Positions 14,745 to 54,961 of a stretch of DNA of 64,000 nt are shown one piece after another. The notes under the pieces are model-generated. The model made no database searches, had not been told where the DNA came from, and was given only the letters and a program-made list of their open reading frames with translations. The position numbers and the translations under genes were made by a program. Source of the DNA: Candidatus Liptonbacteria bacterium (GTDB lineage Bacteria > Patescibacteriota > Minisyncoccia > UBA6257 > 2-01-FULL-56-20); contig VGJV01000001.1 of NCBI GenBank assembly GCA_016867315.1, positions 34,863 through 98,862 of the forward strand, given 5' to 3'. The first letter of the stretch is position 1; the number at the start of each line of letters is the position of its first letter.

Positions 14745-15359
14745 ATGGAACCAGGCAGTTTTAATGCAACTACAGAATGGGTACTTTCCCACGGGTATTT
14801 CCTGATGTTTATAGGCATGCTCGTGTGGGGGCCTCCCATCACCGCCGCCGGCGCTTTCGGCGCGGCGATCAATTATTTCAATATATGGATCGTATTTTTA
14901 TTGTCCCTCACGAGCAACCTTTTGGGAGACGTTATTTTTTATGCGATCGGATATTGGGGCCGGGAAGAATTTATCCTCAAATATGGCAAATATATCGGGA
15001 TCACCAAACCCCGACTTAAAGTTTCCCAAAAGCTCCTTACTGAAAACATAGGAAAAGCGATGACTATCTCAAAATTGGTGCCGCTCTTGGCGCTGCCGGG
15101 ACTTGTCATGGCGGGCCTCGTAAAGGTTCCGCTTCGGCCTTATGTATGGTGGGCAGTCGTGATCGCACTTCCAAGTACGTTGGTGTATTTGGTATTGGGT
15201 TATTATTTCGGCACCATCTATGACACCCTGGAGCGCTACCTCCATCTCGGCGGAGCTGTCGTAGCGGCACTCATTCTCCTCTTTGTCATCTTTGCACACT
15301 ATACCCGCCGAGTTTCGAAACATATGGAAAAGGAGCACGGGGGGCACGACGAGGATTAA
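14745..15359 (+). CDS. DedA/SNARE-associated family membrane protein
   Basis: About 200 aa polytopic membrane protein with DedA-like layout; divergent from PAP2-like gene. Confidence 0.55.
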   Translation: MEPGSFNATTEWVLSHGYFLMFIGMLVWGPPITAAGAFGAAINYFNIWIVFLLSLTSNLLGDVIFYAIGYWGREEFILKYGKYIGITKPRLKVSQKLLTENIGKAMTISKLVPLLALPGLVMAGLVKVPLRPYVWWAVVIALPSTLVYLVLGYYFGTIYDTLERYLHLGGAVVAALILLFVIFAHYTRRVSKHMEKEHGGHDED

Positions 15360-15360
15360 G

Positions 15361-16593
15361 ATGCGGATCGCTTTTTTTTCTGACAACTTTTATCCGGAAC
15401 TTTCAGGAGTAAGTGATTCGATTCTCACACTCGGGAAAGAACTTGCCCGACGAGGACATGACGTGCTTTTTTCGGTCCCCGCATATTCTTCCGCCGCCTT
15501 CCGGCGAGCAAAAGTGCCTCTTGAAGAACTCGAGTTAGGAGACCATATTTCTATCGAACGCCGGTTTTCTCTCCCCTTCCCCGGGAGTCCCACCGGACAA
15601 GGCAGAATCGCGATTCCTCTTCCTCGACTTACGGCTCAGGTAAAAAGCTTTGCTCCTGAAGTAATCCACACTCAATTCTTTTTTGGCATGGGACTCGCGG
15701 CGCTTTCCGCCTCGAAACGTTTAGGAGTGCCGCTCGTGGGCACCAGCCATACTGCTACTAAAGAGTTTCTCGCGTACGCTCCGATACGAGCAGCCTGGTC
15801 CGACCGGCTCGTCATCAAATATATGAACTGGTTTTACTCCCAATGCGATATAGTTACTGCTCCTTCTGCTTCCGTACTCGAAGAAATGCACGCCGATGGC
15901 TTTGCCAAAGAAGGCCGGGCACTTTCGAATCCCATCGACACTGACTTATTTTCGCCCCAAGCAGACAAGGAGGCGCTCAAACAAAAATTCGGATTCGGAC
16001 CTCACACGCTTTTTCATGCGGGGAGATTTTCTGAAGAGCGCCACATCGATGTTCTTATAGAAGCTTTGGCGGAGGTACGACGTACCGTGCATGATGCGGA
16101 GCTCGCCATCGCCGGGCGCGGTGCCTCAGAAGCCTTTCTCAAACAAAAAGCGGCTAATCTGGGACTCAATGGAGCAGTGAGGTTTTTGGGGCTTCTTGAT
16201 AAACCCACTCTTGCCGCGGCTTACAATGCGAGCGATATATTTCTTATCGCGAGCACCTGTGAAACCCAAAGCCTGGTTCTTATGCAAGCCTTTGCCTGTG
16301 GTCTCCCCGCGATCGGGGTGCGCGCTCGCGCACTGCCCGAATACATCAATTCGCAAAATGGGTTTCTCACGGAACCCGGGGACGCGCACGGGATGGGCGC
16401 TTATGCCGCACGACTTCTGCTCGATGCGACCCTCCGTCGCAAACTTGGAAAAGGAGCGAGGAGCTTCTCAGAGCAATTCAGCACTCCTTCTATTGCTGAC
16501 CAATGGGAGGCAATTTATGCCGAGGCCATTGCGCGCTACCATGCGAACAGCCTAGCGCAAATAGCAAAGGGCAAACAGTTATTACCTTCATGA
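15361..16593 (+). CDS. glycosyltransferase family 4 (start moved to MRIAFFS, GAGGA RBS upstream)
   Basis: GT-B fold; EAxACGLPAIG-like C-terminal motif (QAFACGLPAIGVRA). Confidence 0.8.
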   Translation: MRIAFFSDNFYPELSGVSDSILTLGKELARRGHDVLFSVPAYSSAAFRRAKVPLEELELGDHISIERRFSLPFPGSPTGQGRIAIPLPRLTAQVKSFAPEVIHTQFFFGMGLAALSASKRLGVPLVGTSHTATKEFLAYAPIRAAWSDRLVIKYMNWFYSQCDIVTAPSASVLEEMHADGFAKEGRALSNPIDTDLFSPQADKEALKQKFGFGPHTLFHAGRFSEERHIDVLIEALAEVRRTVHDAELAIAGRGASEAFLKQKAANLGLNGAVRFLGLLDKPTLAAAYNASDIFLIASTCETQSLVLMQAFACGLPAIGVRARALPEYINSQNGFLTEPGDAHGMGAYAARLLLDATLRRKLGKGARSFSEQFSTPSIADQWEAIYAEAIARYHANSLAQIAKGKQLLPS

Positions 16594-16715
16594 ATCCCGT
16601 TAGAGACAACTGGACAATGCTTATGGCAATTCTAATATTTTGGAAAAGAACGCCTATTATTTTAAATAAGTCGTTTTGTTACGGTTCCGCAAGCGGAACC
16701 TGCCTCTAACGGGAT
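16594..16715. repeat. MITE-like element copy A: 15-bp terminal inverted repeats ATCCCGTTAGAGACA / TGCCTCTAACGGGAT plus internal perfect palindrome GGTTCCGC-AA-GCGGAACC
   Basis: Fills the whole GT4-GT2 spacer; same TIRs and palindrome recur in opposite orientation at 51263-51381. Confidence 0.55.
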
Positions 16716-17427
16716 GAATATAAGCTTTATTGTGCCTGCATATAATGAAGAGAAATACATCGGGCCCTGTCTCGAGAGCATCTTTGCGCATACGGGAGAA
16801 GAAGTGCAAGAAATTCTCGTGATCAATAATGCTTCGACCGATCGCACCGCAGAAGTCGCCGGCAAATTCCCAAAGGTACGCGTCGTGCATGAACCTAAGA
16901 AGGGACTTACTTTTGCGCGCGAACGCGGGCTTCGGGAAGCTCAGGGAGAGTTTCTTGCCTACATTGATGCGGACACTCGTCTCCACGCAGGATGGCTTCC
17001 TATCGTAAAGGAAGAATTTTCCAAACGGAACGATCTCGTATGCCTCAGCGGGCCTTTCTCCTATTACGATCTCACGCCTTCTCAAAAATTCGCAGCCGAG
17101 ATGGGATGGAAAATCTTTGCTCCTCTTACTTATGCGATCGTAGGATATATGGTGCTCGGAGCCAATTTTATCGTGCGAAAAGACGCCCTTCTTCAAGCCG
17201 GGACATTCAATACTTCCGTCGCCTTCTATGGGGAAGATACGGATATCGCCCGCCGATTGAGCAAAGTAGGAACCGTGCTTTTCCGCATGAACTTCTTTAT
17301 CTTGGGGTCAGGACGCCGACTGCTTGCCGAAGGCTTGTTAAAAACATATGCCACCTATGCTGCTAACTTCATTTCGGAAGTCGCGTGGCACAAGCCCGTA
17401 ACAAAGCGTTATAAAGATATCCGATGA
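16714..17427 (+). CDS. glycosyltransferase family 2
   Basis: SFIVPAYNEE, DADT (DXD) motifs. Confidence 0.8.
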   Translation: MNISFIVPAYNEEKYIGPCLESIFAHTGEEVQEILVINNASTDRTAEVAGKFPKVRVVHEPKKGLTFARERGLREAQGEFLAYIDADTRLHAGWLPIVKEEFSKRNDLVCLSGPFSYYDLTPSQKFAAEMGWKIFAPLTYAIVGYMVLGANFIVRKDALLQAGTFNTSVAFYGEDTDIARRLSKVGTVLFRMNFFILGSGRRLLAEGLLKTYATYAANFISEVAWHKPVTKRYKDIR

Positions 17428-17975
17428 CTCCTCCAAAAAAAGCAGCACTTGCTACGACCATCTTTTCTCTCGCGGGAGTGGCTTCTATTCTCGCGACCGT
17501 AACCCATTGGGGAGCTTCGTCCCCCCTCATCATTTTTTATGCCTTGCTTATGGTCCACACGTTTTTTTCCGTACGCTGCTTTTCCGCTTTCACTCCCGAA
17601 GACAACAAAGCCCAAAATTTCATCGATGTAGTACTCGCGCTCGTATATTTCGGATTGGCTTTTACTCTTTCCACGCCTTCTTATTTTACCGTCGCTACAG
17701 GCCTTCTTTTCAGTATTTCCATACTCAAGTATTCGCATCTCATGGGGCTCACGAGAAATCCCGCTGCACTTATTCTCCTTTATAGAAAGATTCGAGCCCA
17801 AGCTTTGGGCACTACACTGGTACTTTTTGTGCTGCTTGGAATCCTCGCCGGATATTCTTCCCAAGCAATACTCGCCGGAGTCATCGCGTTCTGTCTTTTG
17901 AGTATCAATTATTTATTTCTTAATCCGCTTTACCCATACCACGGTAAAATTGACGCTTCGGGCAAACATTCGTAG
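17424..17975 (+). CDS. hypothetical polytopic membrane protein
   Basis: 4-5 predicted TM helices; ATGA overlap with upstream GT2; no recognisable domain. Confidence 0.5.
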   Translation: MTPPKKAALATTIFSLAGVASILATVTHWGASSPLIIFYALLMVHTFFSVRCFSAFTPEDNKAQNFIDVVLALVYFGLAFTLSTPSYFTVATGLLFSISILKYSHLMGLTRNPAALILLYRKIRAQALGTTLVLFVLLGILAGYSSQAILAGVIAFCLLSINYLFLNPLYPYHGKIDASGKHS

Positions 17976-47864: not shown

Positions 47865-48824
47865 CTATTTAATTCTTTCTCCCGTCACCCCATCGTAGTG
47901 CGCGGCGTACCACTCATACGCATCCTTCACTCCTTCTTCGAGTTCGATTGCGTGCTTCCATCCTAAGCTGCGCATGCGAGACATATCCATTAACTTTCGC
48001 CCCACCCCATCCGGCTTCGTAGTATCCCAGGTGAGGCGTCCTTCATAACCACTTACCTTACCAATAAGTTCGGCGAGGGCCTTAATGGAAATTTCGACGC
48101 CCGTGCCCAGATTAAAAAGATCTTCCTGCGTATCTGTGTTCATAAGAAACAGGCAGCCGGCGGCGATATCATCTACATGAATAAATTCCCGGTATGGACT
48201 TCCTGTTCCCCACAGCACTACCTCTTTTTTCCCTTGCGTCTTCGCTTCGAAAAATTTTCTAATAAATGCCGGGAGTACATGAGAGTTTTTGAGATCGTAA
48301 TGGTCATTAGGGCCGTAGGCGTTTGACGGCATCACCGAAATGAAATTGGTGCCATATTGCTTGTTGTATGACTGACAGGTCAACACTCCTGCGAGCTTCG
48401 CCACCGCGTAGGGCTTGTTCGTCGGCTCAAGCACCCCTGTTAAGAGATACTCTTCTTTCATGGGCTGCGGGCAATCTTTAGGGTAGGTGCAGGAGCTGCT
48501 CAAAAAAAGCAGTTTTTTCACTGTATGCTCGTAAGATGCATGAATGATATTGTTTTGGATCGCCAGATTCTCATAAATGAAGTCTGCGGGGAAAGTACTG
48601 TTTGCATAAATCCCCCCTACTTTTGCCGCTGCATCAAATACATATTCCGGTTTTTCTTTTTTAAAAAATTCCCCGACTGCTACGGTATTCGTGAGATCCA
48701 GTTCCTCATGGGAGCGCGCCACAATATTCGTATATCCTTCTTTTTGAAGCAGGCGCATGATCGCGGAGCCCACCAAGCCACGGTGTCCCGCCACATAAAT
48801 TTTTGCGCCTTTTCCCATTGCCAT
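47865..48824 (-). CDS. fcl: GDP-L-fucose synthase family (GDP-4-keto-6-deoxymannose 3,5-epimerase/4-reductase; Fcl or ColC-type)
   Basis: [28 protein letters not shown] motifs. Confidence 0.85.
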
Positions 48825-48854
48825 AGTGGCAATGGTACACCGAAGTAATGGGGA

Positions 48855-49331
48855 TTAAAAGCCTGCGGCGCGAAGGGCTTCTTGAATATATTTGAGGAAA
48901 TTTTTCTCAATTTTAGAAGCCCAGCGGAAATCAGAGCTCTGCGCATCGAGCGCCACGGCGGACTCCTTTTTGACTTCCACTAAACACGTGACTATCGGAG
49001 TATGAGTATTGGTTCCGCGGAAATATCCTCTTGGGGATATAAATTCATAAAAGCCGAGAGGTTCTATAAACTTCCCCGCGAGATTGGTTTCTTCCCTAAG
49101 CTTCCGCACCGCAGTTTGGGCAACTGTTTCATTTTTTAATACTCTCCCGCCGGGAAACCACCAGCTTCCCCGTAGTGGTGGTAGTTTGCGCCTCACCAAC
49201 AGAAATTCCCTTTTCCAATTAACCGCCACTACATCGACGCAAAATATCGGGAGTGTTTTATAAATCTTTCGGTAGAGGGCCGCAGGAATTTTCTCGGAAA
49301 CTATTTTCATAGTGCTTGTATTGTACTCCAA
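48855..49331 (-). CDS. NUDIX hydrolase (GDP-mannose mannosyl hydrolase-like)
   Basis: Nudix box GGRVLKNETVAQTAVRKLREETN; position between fcl and gmd as in gmd-fcl-gmm clusters. Confidence 0.65.
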   Translation of the reverse strand: MEYNTSTMKIVSEKIPAALYRKIYKTLPIFCVDVVAVNWKREFLLVRRKLPPLRGSWWFPGGRVLKNETVAQTAVRKLREETNLAGKFIEPLGFYEFISPRGYFRGTNTHTPIVTCLVEVKKESAVALDAQSSDFRWASKIEKNFLKYIQEALRAAGF

Positions 49332-49429
49332 AACGCAAAGAAGGCATTCCGGACTCTTGGATTTCCAAGAATCGAAATGCCTTCTTATTATTTTTATTTT
49401 CTTTCGTTCCTTTCGGTTGATTGTTGGCG

Positions 49430-50172
49430 TTATTTCATGAGTCCCAACTGGCGGGCGTACTTAAATGTCCCTTGCGTGAGTTCGTCGAGCTGACGCACCC
49501 TTTTAAGGATCATTTCCGGAGTACCTTCGGCTTGGGTCTGAGCCATAGGATGCCCATACGGTACGGGAACATCCATGACTCTGAGTCCCGCCGCGATACA
49601 AGCAATGACCGGGAAGTGAGTGGGATCCCAGGTATCGGGAGCTCCCAGCGCTTCCGGATTGTAGTCCAGGAAATACGGCAGCGCTCTTGGTCCAATCACC
49701 CGCGGGCCGAAGAACATGTCGAGCCACACTCCCGTAGCAAGTCGATAGGCTTCGTTTCCTGCTTGTTCTGTTAAGGTTTGGACTTCGGGTAGGTGACGAA
49801 TCCCTGCGGCATGCGCGAGGGAACGACAAGGTCTGCCTCGCCCGCGAGCACAGGAGCCGCTGCGGTTTCCACGCAGGTTACAAAGCCCACTTTCTCGGGC
49901 TCAAAAAAGACCACCGGATCGTTTTTTGCAAGCTCTCCAGCAACCTTCATTGCCTGCCGTCGACCTGGTCCCAGTTTTCCGGGCGGGTGAGAAATCTCTT
50001 CCACCACCTGCACATGCTGTAGCTTTTCGAATTTCTCCCGATACCACCCCGGAGAACCTCCATCAACCACTACCATTCGATATCCCAATACACTTGCCCG
50101 TTGCACCATCTCATACGCGAGTTGGGAGCGAATATTATTTTTAGGATCGGGGTAGAAAGTGGTGGTAGCCAA
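49430..50172 (-). pseudogene. frameshifted, GC-rich glycosyltransferase-like gene remnant (two ORFs 49771-50172 and 49430-49729 in different frames)
   Basis: The downstream ORF frame stays open far upstream of its GTG and overlaps the upstream ORF tail; VVVDGGSPG motif; local GC clearly above neighbours. Confidence 0.35.
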
Positions 50173-50265
50173 TTTGCTTTCCTTTCTCTCTCAAGAGCGT
50201 CGCTCTTGAGCGCCCAAACTATACCATATTCATATGGTAAATGCAAGGCTCTCTTAGATTTTTCT

Positions 50266-51264
50266 TTAGAGAGTAGCTCCTACCGCTTTACAGTCTGCTT
50301 CCACCATAATGCGTACGAGTTCCGGAAACTTTGTTGTTGCTTCCCACTTAAGTTTTTCTTTGGCCTTCTTCGTATCTGCAATAAGATCATCTACTTCCGT
50401 GGGACGGAGATAGCGAGGATCAAACTCCACGTACTTTTTCCAGTCTCCTAAGCCTGCTACCTTAAACGCTTCGGCTACAAATTCTTCTACGGAGTGAGAC
50501 TCCCCTGTCCCGATTACATAGTCTTCGGGCTTTTCCTGCTGGAGCATTTGCCACATCGCTTCGCAATATTCTGGCGCATATCCCCAATCTCGTTTCGCCT
50601 CGAGATTTCCCAAATAAAGTTTTTTCTCGAGGCCGGCTTTGATGCGCGCTACGCCGCGAGAAATTTTCCTCGTCACAAACGTTTCGCCTCGGCGGGGCGA
50701 TTCATGATTGAAGAGAATTCCATTCACTGCAAAAAGCCCATACGCCTCCCGATAATTCCGAGTCATGTGATAGGCGAACACCTTCGCGGCCGCATAAGGA
50801 CTCCGAGGATAAAAAGGGGTATTTTCGCTTTGAGGAGGAGGGGTGGCTCCAAACATTTCCGAGCTCGATGCCTGATAAAACCTCACTTTCTTTTTGGTCT
50901 CTTTCTCGTAATCCTTGATGGCTTCGAGTATCCGAAGCGCACCGAGGCCCACAATCTCCGCGGTATACTCCGGAATATCGAAGGATACGCGCACGTGCGA
51001 TTGTGCGCCCAAGTTATAAAATTCATCGGGAGCTACTTCATACAAGAGCTTCCGAACCGTGTTCGCATCCGACAAGTCTCCATAATGCAAAATAAAATTT
51101 TTATGCTCCACGTGCGGATCTTGATAAATATGATCTATCCGCGAGGTATTGAAGGTCGAAGCGCGCCGAATTACCCCGTGTACTTCATACCCTTTCTTTA
51201 ATAAAATTTCGGCCAAGTAACTTCCATCCTGACCCGTGACACCGGTAAGCAATGCTTTTTTCAT
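50266..51264 (-). CDS. gmd: GDP-mannose 4,6-dehydratase
   Basis: [19 protein letters not shown]-terminus, [22 protein letters not shown] motifs. Confidence 0.9.
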
Positions 51265-51381
51265 CCCGTTAGAGACAGGTTCCGCCCGCGGAACCGTAGT
51301 AATAAGGGTTTACTGTAAAAAAACATATTTTTACAAAACATTGTAATGACATGAAATTTGATCTGGTGTCTCTCACGGGAT
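51263..51381. repeat. MITE-like element copy B (inverted relative to copy A): ATCCCGTTAGAGACA + GGTTCCGC-CC-GCGGAACC ... TGTCTCTCACGGGAT
   Basis: Same 15-bp TIR (one mismatch in right TIR) and same 8-bp-arm palindrome as 16594-16715; abuts the gmd start codon. Confidence 0.55.
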
Positions 51382-51392
51382 TCATTACCTCT

Positions 51393-52043
51393 CTACTTCT
51401 TTTTTGTACTCGTCGCAGTCGAGGAAGTTATTACTCCTGCCTCAATGGCTTTTAAGAGCTCTGCTACTCGATTGTCGCTGGGCCATTGCGCATAAATTTG
51501 ATCGGCAAGAAGTTTGGATCGCTCCGCATCTCGCCTGATGAGGTACACGTCTAAAAGCCCATAGAGAAATTGCGGGCGGCGCGGACCCAATTCCAAACCT
51601 TTTAAGAAATACTTCTCTGCTGCGTCCAAGTGTCCCGCTTTCTTCGTATGATTAAAGAGAATCCGCCGCAGCGTGCTTAATATGTACAAATCCTGTTCGA
51701 AGCTCATTCCTTTCTCACGAGCTACGATGGGATTAAAATATTCTTCGACGAAATATACGAGCTCTTCTTCTATTTCTGCGGAGCTGCTTCCCTGACTGAT
51801 GAAACTCGCCACCTCAGAAGCCATATTCCGCACTAATTCTTCCTGTCCGATCGGAGAAGGAATATCAAGCGGCACACGGAATAAATCTTTAAATTCTTCC
51901 AAAGATCGTGCTCCGTTCATTCCCCGCACTGTTCGGATGAACGAGTGAGACTTTTCATAAGGCAAGTAGCTCCCGTAATACGCTATAAACGCAAGAAAAA
52001 GAACAGCGATTATCGATATTACTTTTTTGATAGTACTGCTCAT
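51393..52043 (-). CDS. hypothetical membrane-anchored protein (start placed at MSSTIKK)
   Basis: N-terminal TM helix, no recognisable domain; lies between gmd and Wzy_C-like gene. Confidence 0.45.
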   Translation of the reverse strand: MSSTIKKVISIIAVLFLAFIAYYGSYLPYEKSHSFIRTVRGMNGARSLEEFKDLFRVPLDIPSPIGQEELVRNMASEVASFISQGSSSAEIEEELVYFVEEYFNPIVAREKGMSFEQDLYILSTLRRILFNHTKKAGHLDAAEKYFLKGLELGPRRPQFLYGLLDVYLIRRDAERSKLLADQIYAQWPSDNRVAELLKAIEAGVITSSTATSTKKK

Positions 52044-52044
52044 A

Positions 52045-53433
52045 TTAGTGGGCGTGGGTATGGTTTTCTTCTTTTTTATGATGCATCCACCAAGCCGCAA
52101 AAGCTAAGAACAAGAAAAGGTTTATATAGATGGGCAACACATCAAAGAGCACTAAGCCCTGCACGAGATACCCGACGGGCAATGCAAAAAGGAGTCCCTG
52201 CATTATTGTGGATTCATCCCCATGTCTCACTCGACGGAAAAAGCCTACGAAAAACGTCACAAATATACCTAAGAACGTGAGAACTCCCAAGAGGCCCGTC
52301 TCTGCGAGATAATCGAAGAACAGGCTGTGCGCCCGATCAAACCATGTTTCTGTGGCTTTCCCCGGAGCGAAATGCCGAGGATCGAAATGTTTATCGAATA
52401 CCGCGGGGAAGTTTTCTGGCCCCCAACCAAGAAGAGGTCGTTCTTTGAATCCTTCCCAGGCAGATCCCCAAGTCCATACCCGAGTGGCAAAGCTTTCTAC
52501 GGAACTCACATCATAAAGCCTTCCGGCAAAAGGAATTCTCTTTACCGCATCGGAGTCGTGAAAAAAGAACATCCCCGCATTAAAGAGGAGGATAATGAGC
52601 AACACGATGAGGGAAAAGCGTTTTAACTTTCTCTCTCCTCTTAACGCAGCGTAAAGGAAGAATGTTATGACGGCAGCTCCGAGCCCCAAGAAAGCTCCTC
52701 TGGTTTGCGTAAGTATAAGAAAGACGAAAAAGAAAACTCCTAAGCCGATCCACCATCGGCGCTTTTGGCTTTTTATTGCTAGATAGAAGCAATAAAACAT
52801 GGTGAACATGAGATAGGGCGCCACGTATGCAGGATTACCCAGAGAGCCCTGGAACCTTACTACCGGCGAGAATAGACGACCCAAAAAGGAATCCGCCACA
52901 GGCTGACCCCCAGGACCCGCGTAGGCACTTACCAATCCAAACGGGTTCGTATAGACGCCGTTCGACTGTACTAGTACCGCAGAGCCAATCCCATAAAAAA
53001 CCACAACGAGGGCGGCAGCGATTGCAATTTTGAACACCCGCTCCCAATCTTCCCGCTTCGAAGCAAATAAAGTGAGGAGCATGAATAACCCGTAGTAGTG
53101 GAGCATCTGAAACCCTCCCTCCCCTCTTTCATAGTTAGACCAGAAAGCCCCATGCGGATTGTCTGCAAAAATGGAGGCGAGCAAAAAAGCCGCTACAAAG
53201 AAAGAAACTGCCACTACCAGAGGTCTATTCCAGGCCTCCTTAAATCTCCTCTTTGCTTCTCCGACTGGGGCTTCAAACGCCCACCAGAGGAATGCAAAGG
53301 CTATTCCTAATTCAATAGCGACACGAAACCAGTATGTTTTACCTCCAATAAAAGGGAAAAGCGCCCCCATCAGTACCACAATCACGCAGAAGAGTGAGGC
53401 GTAGGTAAAAAATTTAGAGAGCTTAAGAAGCAT
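52045..53433 (-). CDS. O-antigen ligase / O-antigen polymerase family (Wzy_C domain) membrane protein
   Basis: About 10-12 TM; TQTRGAFLGL and periplasmic-loop RxxxW...AHSLFFDYLAETG pattern typical of WaaL/Wzy_C. Confidence 0.6.
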   Translation of the reverse strand: MLLKLSKFFTYASLFCVIVVLMGALFPFIGGKTYWFRVAIELGIAFAFLWWAFEAPVGEAKRRFKEAWNRPLVVAVSFFVAAFLLASIFADNPHGAFWSNYERGEGGFQMLHYYGLFMLLTLFASKREDWERVFKIAIAAALVVVFYGIGSAVLVQSNGVYTNPFGLVSAYAGPGGQPVADSFLGRLFSPVVRFQGSLGNPAYVAPYLMFTMFYCFYLAIKSQKRRWWIGLGVFFFVFLILTQTRGAFLGLGAAVITFFLYAALRGERKLKRFSLIVLLIILLFNAGMFFFHDSDAVKRIPFAGRLYDVSSVESFATRVWTWGSAWEGFKERPLLGWGPENFPAVFDKHFDPRHFAPGKATETWFDRAHSLFFDYLAETGLLGVLTFLGIFVTFFVGFFRRVRHGDESTIMQGLLFALPVGYLVQGLVLFDVLPIYINLFLFLAFAAWWMHHKKEENHTHAH

Positions 53434-53437
53434 TTCT

Positions 53438-54961
53438 TTATCGAGCGTATTCTACTGCCCGCATTTCTCGAATCACGTTCACTTTAATTTCTCCTGGGTA
53501 TTTTAACTCCGATTGAATTTTATTCGCAATTCCTCGAGCGAGCTCCAAGGCCCGGAAGTCGTCTACCTTTTCGGGAATCACGAACACTCGAAGTTCCCGC
53601 CCCGCAGAAATCGCGTAGGCACTTTTCACGCCTGGGAACTGCATCGCGATCCGCTCCAAGTCTCCTAAGCGCTTGATGTATGCCTCGATCGTGCCTCGGC
53701 GCGCTCCTGGGCGAGCAGCGGAGAGTACATCTGCGGCGGTCACAATGTAGGCCTCAGGGATCGCATATGGATAATCTTCATGATGCGACTGCATGGCTTG
53801 AATCACGCGTTCGTCGATGCTGTATTTTCGCAGAACCTTAATTCCCAAATCCACATGCGTACCTTCGATCTCATGGTCCAGGGCTTTTCCAATGTCATGG
53901 AGTAATGCTCCCCGCTTCGCGATCTCCACATTTAATCCCAATTCTCCCGCCATCATAGTCGAAAGGTGCGCCATTTCGACAGAGTGCGTGAGTACGTTCT
54001 GACCATAACTCGTGCGGAAGTGGAGTCTTCCCAAGAGCTGCACGATTTCCTTCGGTAAATCGAATACGCCTACCTCCTCGGCAGCTTGTCCTCCAATTTC
54101 CTGCATCCGCTTCGCGAGTTCTTGCCGCGCTTCTTCTACTTTCTCTTCAATCTTCGCGGGCTGAATGCGACCGTCCTTAATAAGTTTTTGGAGCGCTAAC
54201 CTGGCCACCTCGCGGCGATACGGGTCGAAGGAAGAAATCACGATCGTATCCGGAGTTTCATCAATCACAAACTCCACCCCGGTCGCGCGTTCGAGGGCGC
54301 GAATGTTTCGACCCTCTCGGCCGATGATTTTTCCTTTGATGTCTTCATCACCCAGCGGAAACGCGCTCGTCGTGAGTTCGGAGACATGCGAACGACTCAT
54401 TCGCTGCAGGGCCACCGTGACGATATCCGTCGCGCGCTTCTCTACCTCTTCCCGATTTTCTTTTTCTACCTTCTGCACCAGTTGTACCAAGTCCGCTTTG
54501 CGTTCCTCGGTTACTTTCCGGAAAAGTTCTTCTTTCGCTTCCGCGGCAGAGAGGCCCGAAGCCTTTTCCAGGCGCACCTCGGCTTCCTTTCTTAATGTTT
54601 CGAGATTAGCCTCTTCTTTCTTCAGATGATCCGCTTTGGATTTTAAGGCCGCCTCATCGTTCCCGAGGGAAGCCAGCTTTTTATCCAAGAGCTCCTCCCG
54701 ACGAATAAGCCTTTGCTCCAAATTCACCACCTCCTGCTTCCGCTCTTTTTCTTCCTTCCTCGCTTCAGAGAGGACGTCCGCCGCTTTGTGTTCGGCTTCA
54801 AGTACTACCTTTTTCGCTTTTTCCTCGGCGGCGCCGAGGATTTCTTTAGTTTTTTCCTCCGCTTTCGCTGCCTGCTGGGTCGCAAAGGCAAGACGCACTA
54901 CATACCCAATGCACGCTCCAACGACAAGCACCCCGACGAGGGGTATCCACGATCCTTCCAT
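53438..54961 (-). CDS. rny: ribonuclease Y
   Basis: N-terminal TM, coiled-coil K/E-rich region, KH domain GKIIGREGRNIRALE, HD domain LLHDIGK. Confidence 0.9.
   Translation of the reverse strand: MEGSWIPLVGVLVVGACIGYVVRLAFATQQAAKAEEKTKEILGAAEEKAKKVVLEAEHKAADVLSEARKEEKERKQEVVNLEQRLIRREELLDKKLASLGNDEAALKSKADHLKKEEANLETLRKEAEVRLEKASGLSAAEAKEELFRKVTEERKADLVQLVQKVEKENREEVEKRATDIVTVALQRMSRSHVSELTTSAFPLGDEDIKGKIIGREGRNIRALERATGVEFVIDETPDTIVISSFDPYRREVARLALQKLIKDGRIQPAKIEEKVEEARQELAKRMQEIGGQAAEEVGVFDLPKEIVQLLGRLHFRTSYGQNVLTHSVEMAHLSTMMAGELGLNVEIAKRGALLHDIGKALDHEIEGTHVDLGIKVLRKYSIDERVIQAMQSHHEDYPYAIPEAYIVTAADVLSAARPGARRGTIEAYIKRLGDLERIAMQFPGVKSAYAISAGRELRVFVIPEKVDDFRALELARGIANKIQSELKYPGEIKVNVIREMRAVEYAR

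Follow-up and report, generated by a model that had tools for sequence, protein, structure and literature searches.

MITEs of bacteria (miniature inverted-repeat transposable elements), such as Correia/NEMIS of Neisseria, ERIC/IRU, RUP and the Rickettsia palindromic elements (RPE), are 100–150 bp long and have inverted ends that can be folded into a long stem; they occur in many copies, lie within transcription units, are flanked by short repeats and carry no transposase of their own. Here we describe an element with the same properties in a Candidatus Liptonbacteria metagenome-assembled genome (MAG), a member of the Candidate Phyla Radiation (CPR, or Patescibacteria), of which one stretch of 64,000 nucleotides of contig VGJV01000001.1 was analysed and is referred to as the window. 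The element (copy B) occupies positions 51263–51381, directly before the start of gmd, encoding GDP-mannose 4,6-dehydratase, and has a sibling (copy A) elsewhere in the window. We conclude that 51263–51381 is probably a gene-less member of a mobile-element family whose longer form encodes a very small GIY-YIG nuclease. As with RPE, which are tolerated inside reading frames, one copy of the family sits inside a reading frame. Unlike Correia, ERIC, RUP and RPE, however, the family inserts at start codons in a fixed orientation and with a flanking repeat that regenerates the ATG, its longer partner encodes a GIY-YIG nuclease instead of a DDE transposase, and it spans many CPR classes and other phyla with nearly identical ends.

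Elements of the IS200/IS605 and REP/RAYT (REPIN) groups likewise conserve DNA hairpins rather than the sequence of these hairpins, have abundant gene-less derivatives and are inserted beside a short specific target in fixed orientation. They differ in relying on HUH (Y1) transposases and subterminal hairpins, without terminal inverted repeats or a flanking repeat, and no HUH (Y1) gene was present among the open reading frames (ORFs) clustered near the elements described here. By analogy, the closest functional counterparts are the Correia/RPE-type MITEs, with regard to tolerance within transcription units, and IS200/IS605-REP, with regard to hairpin dependence and target-specific polar insertion.

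Small selfish genes with a GIY-YIG nuclease as sole product are found among the homing genes, such as seg of phage T4 and the mobile ORFs of fungal mitochondria, and these are also squeezed between host genes or up against them, often overlapping their starts or stops. Such genes act at one cognate site and spread to the empty allele by repair, with no inverted ends, repeat or miniatures, whereas the present elements occupy many unrelated loci per genome and their 86-aa nuclease lacks I-TevI-like DNA-binding domains. The element nuclease gives profile matches to the stand-alone proteins of UPF0213/COG2827 (1zg2 BH0048 and 1ywl EF2693; the bacterial Slx1-like group), from which it is distinguished by a conserved basic tail (...GMGKRYLKNRLKRFLSLTG) and by last codons that are the inverted repeat of its first codons. 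Slx1 is a structure-specific nuclease. The chemistry of prokaryotic transposition is at present attributed to enzymes of the DDE, DEDD, HUH, serine, tyrosine and Cas1 types, and we know of no insertion-sequence family that uses a GIY-YIG enzyme. In a 2006 survey of the superfamily, the stand-alone GIY-YIG group was regarded as vertically inherited repair proteins (PMC1564403), and a GIY-YIG protein has been listed among the genes transferred out of Patescibacteria (PMC12455944). A literature search that included the end sequences and the peptide termini, with most subscription journals outside its scope, returned no description of the element, and the family is apparently undescribed.

Results

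The element before gmd and its sibling

On the + strand, copy B is bounded by ATCCCGTTAGAGACA at 51263–51277 and TGTCTCTCACGGGAT at 51367–51381, the reverse complement of the latter differing from the left end at one position (14/15 match), and the palindrome GGTTCCGCCCGCGGAACC at 51278–51295 directly adjoins the former. The letters and coordinates of both ends and of the palindrome, including the single mismatch on the right, are as reported in the first-pass annotation, which had been made from the sequence of the window. When read on the − strand, 5′ to 3′ toward gmd (50266–51264, − strand, 332 amino acids), the 119-bp, putatively non-autonomous element starts with a gene-distal inverted end (ATCCCGTGAGAGACA, 51367–51381), coding for (N)PVRD in the full-length relatives, and finishes with a hairpin of a 7-bp stem and a 4-nt loop (51278–51295) and the adjoining gene-proximal inverted end (TGTCTCTAACGGGAT, 51263–51277), coding for LSLTG in these relatives. 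The terminal AT of the proximal end provides the first two bases of the gmd ATG and lies within the CAT, the reverse complement of ATG, at the gmd start (51262–51264). An ATGAA repeat is found on both flanks. The upstream repeat (51381–51385) is the presumed original gmd start and now opens a relic ORF of 38 codons (51269–51385, − strand), of which the TAA (51271–51269) ends 4 nt before the gmd ATG; the downstream repeat (51260–51264) consists of the present gmd ATG (51264–51262) and two bases of the second codon.

The 122-bp copy A (16594–16715, + strand) precedes a GT2 glycosyltransferase gene (16714–17427) and possesses a hairpin (16683–16700), ATGAA repeats on both flanks (16590–16594 and 16714–16718) and a relic ORF (16590–16709), all on the + strand. 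Once oriented by the downstream gene, the two copies are identical at 90 of 122 positions, and the agreement is unevenly distributed (14/15 in the outer end, 33/36 over TAC, hairpin and inner end, 43/71 or 61% in the interior), bearing out the earlier claim that inverted ends and palindrome are conserved and the interior has diverged. Both share one layout toward the gene, namely outer end, variable interior, TAC, hairpin, inner end and ATG. The earlier description of copy B as an inverted copy holds in window coordinates but not relative to the genes, as the hairpin end adjoins the start codon in both.

With up to two mismatches allowed, the 15-mer end occurs four times in the window (16594, 16701, 51263 and 51367) against 0.10 expected, a number reached in 0 of 100 shuffles, and the palindrome GGTTCCGCNNGCGGAACC occurs twice against 0.04 expected. 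A search of the 64-kb window with the family profile returned copies A and B only. Given that both lack an intact GIY-YIG ORF, the element is a derivative, not a member, of the nuclease gene family (PF01541; UPF0213).

Copies with the same ends in other genomes

A pattern scan was carried out on one genome per species with 11 bases of each end fixed and the hairpin left unspecified. Among the matches listed, at least 118 stretches carry the two ends, mostly in Patescibacteria/CPR, where about two would be expected by chance (our own estimate), and the further copies that the first-pass annotation had proposed to look for are consequently on record. The CPR carriers among these matches comprise Yanofsky-, Harrison-, Jorgensen-, Lipton-, Nomura- and Saccharibacteria, Paceibacteria and Microgenomates, together with a few carriers beyond CPR (Elusimicrobiota, Omnitrophota and Planctomycetota MAGs). 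The counts given below refer to 126 parsed short copies, of which 124 were examined for ORFs and 120 had enough flanking sequence to assign orientation.

A stem of at least 5 bp adjoins the right end in 113 of the 126 copies. The sequence of this stem differs among copies, with compensatory changes at six of seven pairs and 98.6% of cells paired, and the covariation score was not reached in any of 500 shuffles.

Several copies deserve mention on their own account. A subfamily in Saccharibacteria and Yanofskybacteria (loci L004, L011, L012, L023, L028, L049, L055, L065, L081, L093, L102 and L110) has the end motif a third time, in its interior (TCTTAACGGGA, with GCGGTGGCC before it; alignment A1, columns ~85–95), which may serve as an additional binding site or point to past nesting. 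Degenerate copies are crowded together at L074:1–1700 (Saccharibacteria MAG contig CAZPDF010000007.1), among them a full-length nuclease gene (~833–1232) into which another copy is inserted; this insert keeps the frame and has no stop over its 37 codons, and a single ORF thus runs through the whole, with the junctions ...DAYAR-PVRS...TSNG-AREKY.... CPR-type copies with ATGAAT or ATGGT flanks were also found on short contigs assigned to DPANN archaea (L068, labelled Micrarchaeota, and L111, labelled Woesearchaeota) and to Gammaproteobacteria (L058), reflecting either mis-binning or transfer between co-occurring ultra-small organisms.

Insertion at start codons with fixed polarity

An ATG directly follows the element, on the side of the hairpin, in 99 of the 126 copies, and a host ORF of at least 60 codons begins at that base in 92 of them. 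Of the 120 copies assigned an orientation, 86 have a gene start exactly at their hairpin-proximal end and 4 at the opposite one. The insertion-site preference suggested in the first-pass annotation from two copies is therefore family-wide, and the orientation, there given as that of one copy relative to the other, is fixed relative to the host gene, not random. Insertion at a start codon by way of the terminal AT had also been proposed; both window copies are indeed at an ATG, but the start is restored by the ATGAA repeat and not by the AT alone. An element-borne 5′ leader, the alternative offered in the first-pass annotation, may or may not be involved; the element shows no promoter-like site.

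Information in the flanks is confined to six nucleotides on the left (A-T-G/T-A-A-T/C) and five on the right (A/G-T-G-A-A), with none further out, and the two sides agree at five or more of six positions in 85 of the 126 copies. The flanks vary together (ATGGAT with ATGGAT, ATGAG with ATGAG, GTTGAC with GTTGAC) and in this behave as a target repeat rather than as part of the element. The left repeat is always followed by T or C and the sixth base on the right is free, so that a repeat of 5 bp fits better than one of 6 bp in CPR.

The downstream host genes are unrelated housekeeping genes, including ssb, ruvC, ybeY, dnaN, hisS, ftsA and ribosomal protein genes. The upstream host ORF often ends at the TGA of the left ATGA (13 cases), as it does at copy A, or at a TAG within the left end (16 cases). 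Some host genes are preceded by an element in several genomes, the subfamily differing among them; examples are ssb (L092, L093, L097, L100 and L119) and a gene starting MKLTFHG/MKLTFYG (L025, L027, L032, L033 and L110). This suggests repeated hits at starts reading ATGAAT or ATGAAR.

A full-length form encoding a GIY-YIG nuclease

A few loci have these ends spaced ~276 bp from each other, with an ORF between them that has a GIY-YIG domain (PF01541, E = 1e-17). This full-length form, ~272–282 bp, contains a single gene for an 86–95-aa GIY-YIG nuclease of the stand-alone UPF0213/Slx1-like type, with profile matches to 1zg2 and 1ywl (E = 1.5e-11 and 1e-4, respectively) and only a weak, sub-threshold match to TIGR01453. 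The Tyr-Tyr-Gly, Arg, His and Glu positions are kept. Such proteins form at least 1,632 clusters at 90% identity, are ~85–110 aa long, come mostly from CPR and are annotated as 'GIY-YIG nuclease family protein' or 'excinuclease ABC subunit C'. They start with MFY... or MNPVRD..., and ...KRFLSLTG is the C-terminus of nearly all. Collections of cultured phages and plasmids, and likewise IMG/VR, gave no relatives of the nuclease, which may explain why the family went unnoticed.

The ends bound the gene in 76 of the 84 nuclease-encoding loci, 272–282 bp apart, and the inverted 13–15 bp are themselves the first and last codons, PVRD (NPVRD) on the left and LSLTG on the right. The stop codon falls outside the element, a TGA or TAA at flank positions 2–4 in 59 of 74 loci, and the same ATGA is the start of the host gene in 43 of 74. 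The ORF starts at the left repeat, the former start codon of the host gene, in 24 of 74 loci and at an internal ATG 15–25 nt into the element in the others. The left and right ends covary (ACA/TGT, ATA/TAT, AAA/TTT, CCA/TGG, GCA/TGC, TTA/TAA and CACG/CGTG), and these changes alter the encoded residues (D/E/G/A on the left, S/P/A/T on the right), indicating that it is the symmetry of the ends, not the peptide, that is conserved.

Clustering of 1,048 ORFs in 118 loci revealed no recurrent transposase, integrase or recombinase, and stray single ends, searched for as a sign of a conventional autonomous insertion sequence (IS), occurred at chance level only.

The short form as a probable deletion derivative

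In the long copies, the R-K-R codons of a D-L-R-K-R-F motif (cGG AAR CGY) are complementary to the C-terminal K-R-F-L codons (AAR CGY TTC C), forming an inner stem that spans 171 nt. Two synonymous third positions of this stem are complementary in 51 and 54 of 55 distinct sequences, and occasional residue changes (F to L together with K to R) lengthen the pairing. At the corresponding place the short copies have TTACGG and the stem. The distance from the left end to TTAC|GG is 67–74 nt in 110 of 113 short copies and 68–78 nt in the long copies, and in both forms the stem directly adjoins the right end. The sizes of end pairs are strictly bimodal, with 136 at 110–129 bp, 92 at 270–289 bp and almost none between. 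The shared ends, stem and spacing, taken with these sizes, indicate that the short form is the long form lacking the ~153-nt loop that the inner stem encloses. At least three assemblies contain long as well as short copies, and in L111 the two are in tandem.

The palindrome noted in the first-pass annotation is present, but its identity can be refined: it is a remnant of a long-range stem inside the nuclease gene, made of the codons for R-K-R and K-R-F-L. The hairpin left in the short form is 7–10 bp, beside the gene-proximal end, and its stem is free of coding constraint, so that the sequence drifts and the pairing is kept. A recognisable ATG followed by I/F-F/Y is retained in only one subfamily of short copies.

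Evidence of movement

Two copies (L070 and L097) with 100% identical interiors lie ~118 kb apart on one contig in unrelated flanks, and two other genomes hold copy pairs with interiors 98.9% and 97.8% identical, again in unrelated flanks. Where copies are in tandem, they have one repeat in common. L158 carries two full-length nuclease elements within 1.1 kb (1504–1833 and 2271–2627). One of these two is at the 3′ end of a host gene, the ORF of which is now terminated by the TAG of the left end; L185 (~980), a homologous locus, is without that element and gives the sole occupied/empty pair among the fetched loci, a weak case.

The locus of copy B can be compared with its relatives. Three other Liptonbacteria assemblies have retained the succession RNase Y, Wzy_C, TPR, gmd, and in them the spacer between the TPR gene (51393–52043 in the window, − strand, 216 amino acids) and gmd is 16, 24–51 or 1 nt without the element, compared with 128 nt in the window. 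At the locus of copy A, two relatives have GT4 and GT2 joined at −1 or +1 nt, also without the element, and their GT4 proteins are 50% identical to that of the window. When the element is taken out together with a single repeat, copy B gives back TAGAGAGGTAATGAAAAAAGC and copy A an ATGA in which stop and start overlap; both restored junctions would be ordinary compact ones. The first-pass annotation had named the same sequence at the same site in close relatives, with no other copies, as a sign of a locus-specific region, and the opposite was found, as syntenic relatives are without the element and many copies exist elsewhere. Two other metagenome assemblies have the element in the same orientation as the window. 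An exact-protein look-up of the GT2 protein found none on record.

Both window copies are inside surface-polysaccharide clusters, copy B in one at 47865–54961 (Wzy_C-like, TPR, gmd, NUDIX, epimerases and aminotransferase) and copy A in one at 15283–17975 (GT4 and GT2), and the core gene order of both clusters is kept among Liptonbacteria.

Reading frames across the short copies

An ATG-started ORF of at least 25 codons that ends no more than 4 nt from the host ATG is present in 73 of the 124 short copies; in 54 of the 124 such an ORF ends at the TAA of the inner end, and none is open in the host gene's own frame. The stop is the TGA of the ATGA in full-length copies and, in many short ones, a TAA placed 4 nt ahead of the host ATG. 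Stop-free frames number 0.60 per copy in the sense direction, compared with 0.41 antisense and 0.36 in shuffles. The idea that the insertion splits a ribosome-binding site was dropped, because a Shine-Dalgarno (SD) core is found upstream of the left ATG in only 3 of 60 copies. Over all fetched loci, SD cores precede 13% of long ORFs and 11% of random positions, and the carrier genomes seem to initiate translation largely without SD pairing.

Discussion

Copy B has inverted ends, a length of 119 bp without an enzyme gene, a flanking repeat, and occurrence at multiple sites with presence and absence between relatives, as do MITEs. There is also a longer element that agrees with it in ends, stem halves and spacing, and the nuclease of this longer form is a candidate for the enzyme acting in trans. 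The MITE-like character proposed in the first-pass annotation is upheld by these features, by the ATGAA repeat and empty syntenic loci and by the lack of a transposase ORF. The best explanation is probably that copy B belongs, as a MITE-like, non-autonomous form with its ORF deleted, to a family of very small GIY-YIG nuclease elements that insert at start codons.

A putative mechanism combining nuclease-driven movement with a translational relay is plausible. The relatives of the nuclease are structure-specific, both stems are kept by compensatory change and no other gene is associated with the elements, from which we infer that the nuclease would mobilise both forms, the short one in trans. 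It may recognise structure rather than sequence, that is, a terminal stem or cruciform together with the inner stem, and the inverted ends and internal stem would then form the DNA substrate of the nuclease and encode the termini of the protein at the same time. The element would insert at a host ATGAA with the polarity of the host gene, and either staggered cleavage or an exchange between shared 5-bp cores could give rise to the ATGAA repeat, leaving the upstream ATG as the host's own initiation site. Ribosomes would read through the relic ORF of 38 codons, stop 4 nt ahead of the gmd ATG and re-initiate there; in copy A, the relay would begin where the ATGA overlaps the GT4 gene. By such a translational relay the host gene probably continues to be expressed. 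The element could accordingly be pictured as a 'start-codon parasite', the ORF of which takes over the initiation site of the host and returns the ribosomes through the ATGA overlap, and this hand-back would be nearly harmless even before essential genes in 1-Mb genomes and would allow gene-less miniatures. Whether the family further represents an unrecognised class of prokaryotic transposable elements, with an 86-aa GIY-YIG (Slx1-like, structure-specific) nuclease as sole enzyme, is put forward tentatively, as an outcome to which we give somewhat less than an even chance.

Several observations weigh against this interpretation. To our knowledge there is no precedent for a GIY-YIG nuclease transposing DNA, and a tblastn search of the 64-kb window with the nuclease revealed no nuclease gene. 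An nhmmer comparison of short-copy interiors with the 5′ third of the nuclease gene gave no similarity, so the link by deletion rests on the shared ends, the stem halves and the spacing. The end motifs are common to all related copies, an invariance that in the short copies is partly by construction, the search pattern having fixed most end bases. The flanking repeat is imperfect in about one-third of the short copies, and all five of its bases agree in only 33 of 74 full-length copies. The enrichment of open frames on the sense strand is real but modest. The genomes with empty sites have flanking-gene proteins only 50–63% identical to those of the window, and the exact pre-insertion sequence is deduced from them. 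Each of two nuclease proteins followed by exact identity occupies one locus across many samples, with no recent full-length movement seen. Finally, the copies outside CPR have GTTGAC-like repeats and are not at start codons.

The latter copies, found in a Planctomycetota MAG, DAOWBV01 (L019, L024, L031, L044, L082 and L088), in Omnitrophota (L034, L060 and L090) and in Elusimicrobia (L010 and L062), have C...G as outermost pair and GTTGAC, GTTTAC or GTTCAC repeats and are often in tandem; the start-codon habit seems specific to the CPR variant.

Among other explanations, a cis-acting RNA serving the host, in which the 15-bp terminal stem sequesters the gmd start and tunes translation for the surface polysaccharide, is compatible with a mobile origin but unlikely to account for the element. 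The sense RNA of copy B folds with z = −4.1 and has the AU of the start codon inside the stem, both window copies stand before polysaccharide genes, and the stems are kept by compensatory change. The antisense strand, however, folds equally well (z = −4.3 to −5.6), and the G-T and A-C mismatches in the stems number 9 and 7, so that neither strand is favoured. Across the family the host genes are unrelated (ssb, ruvC, ybeY and dnaN), and related Liptonbacteria are without the element. Rfam 15 gave no match in the window at the gathering score, and up to E = 10 only chance-level CRISPR-repeat and snoRNA matches.

Slightly less probable still, and also unlikely, is an ordinary MITE moved by a conventional transposase, for instance of the DDE type, with the GIY-YIG gene as a passenger or an unrelated tenant. 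Inverted ends with a short repeat and a near-palindromic target consensus (RTNNAY) are typical of DDE systems, and the fact that we know of no GIY-YIG transposase counts on the same side. However, neither a transposase nor an integrase family is recurrent among the 1,048 ORFs of the 118 loci; the ends coincide with the coding termini of the nuclease in 76 of 84 loci, and none of the bimodal sizes is of IS length. A symmetric DDE target would not yield an orientation bias of 86:4 without strong selection.

It is very improbable that the relic ORFs are a real gene for a small protein of 38–39 aa (MNPVRD...GTCL). Both window copies are open from the upstream ATG to the TAA of the inner end with lengths that differ by 3 nt, and an ORF of at least 25 codons reaches that TAA in the 54 copies mentioned above, but the lengths of the elements are not constant modulo 3, the open frame differs among copies, 60 of 126 have no stop-free frame at all, and what is conserved at the N and C termini amounts to no more than the inverted ends.

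A regulatory region confined to this locus, or a phase switch in the form of an invertible promoter of the polysaccharide genes, brought to mind by inverted repeats around ~90 bp before the glycosyltransferase and gmd genes and by the similar layout of the Bacteroides capsule invertons, a lead only, is of negligible probability and was rejected, because copies precede many unrelated genes in many phyla, the orientation is fixed (86 versus 4, and the same in two other metagenome assemblies), there is neither a promoter-like site nor a recombinase recurrent nearby, and syntenic loci are without the element.

Further candidates were discarded. In an integron attC site (RYYYAAC...GTTRRRY) the AAC/GTT is innermost, whereas the element has GTTAGAG at the 5′ side and CTCTAAC at the 3′ side with GTT/AAC outermost, which is the wrong topology, and its copies are dispersed and located before genes rather than arrayed after cassettes. 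A terminator or promoter cassette was dismissed, as no terminator-like site was found on either strand of 51150–51500 and no promoter-like site at the element. A free-standing homing endonuclease gene does not fit many unrelated loci that share only 5–6 nt instead of one cognate site.

If the GIY-YIG-only reading of these elements as nuclease-driven is true, another enzyme class would be added to those of transposition. Hundreds of CPR proteins annotated as 'excinuclease ABC subunit C' or 'GIY-YIG nuclease' are probably mobile-element genes, and in CPR annotation intergenic regions are made longer, and apparent gene starts displaced, by the 120-bp copies. The ends (CCCGTTAGAGRCA), very conserved over 13 bp, offer a simple means of tracing horizontal exchange of CPR with other phyla of groundwater. 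The insertion logic itself is unusual, in that the start codon is duplicated, the element follows the polarity of the host gene, its stop codon lies on or against the start of that gene and its ends serve as codons too, and this would explain how such insertions are tolerated before ssb, ruvC, dnaN or gmd in highly reduced genomes.

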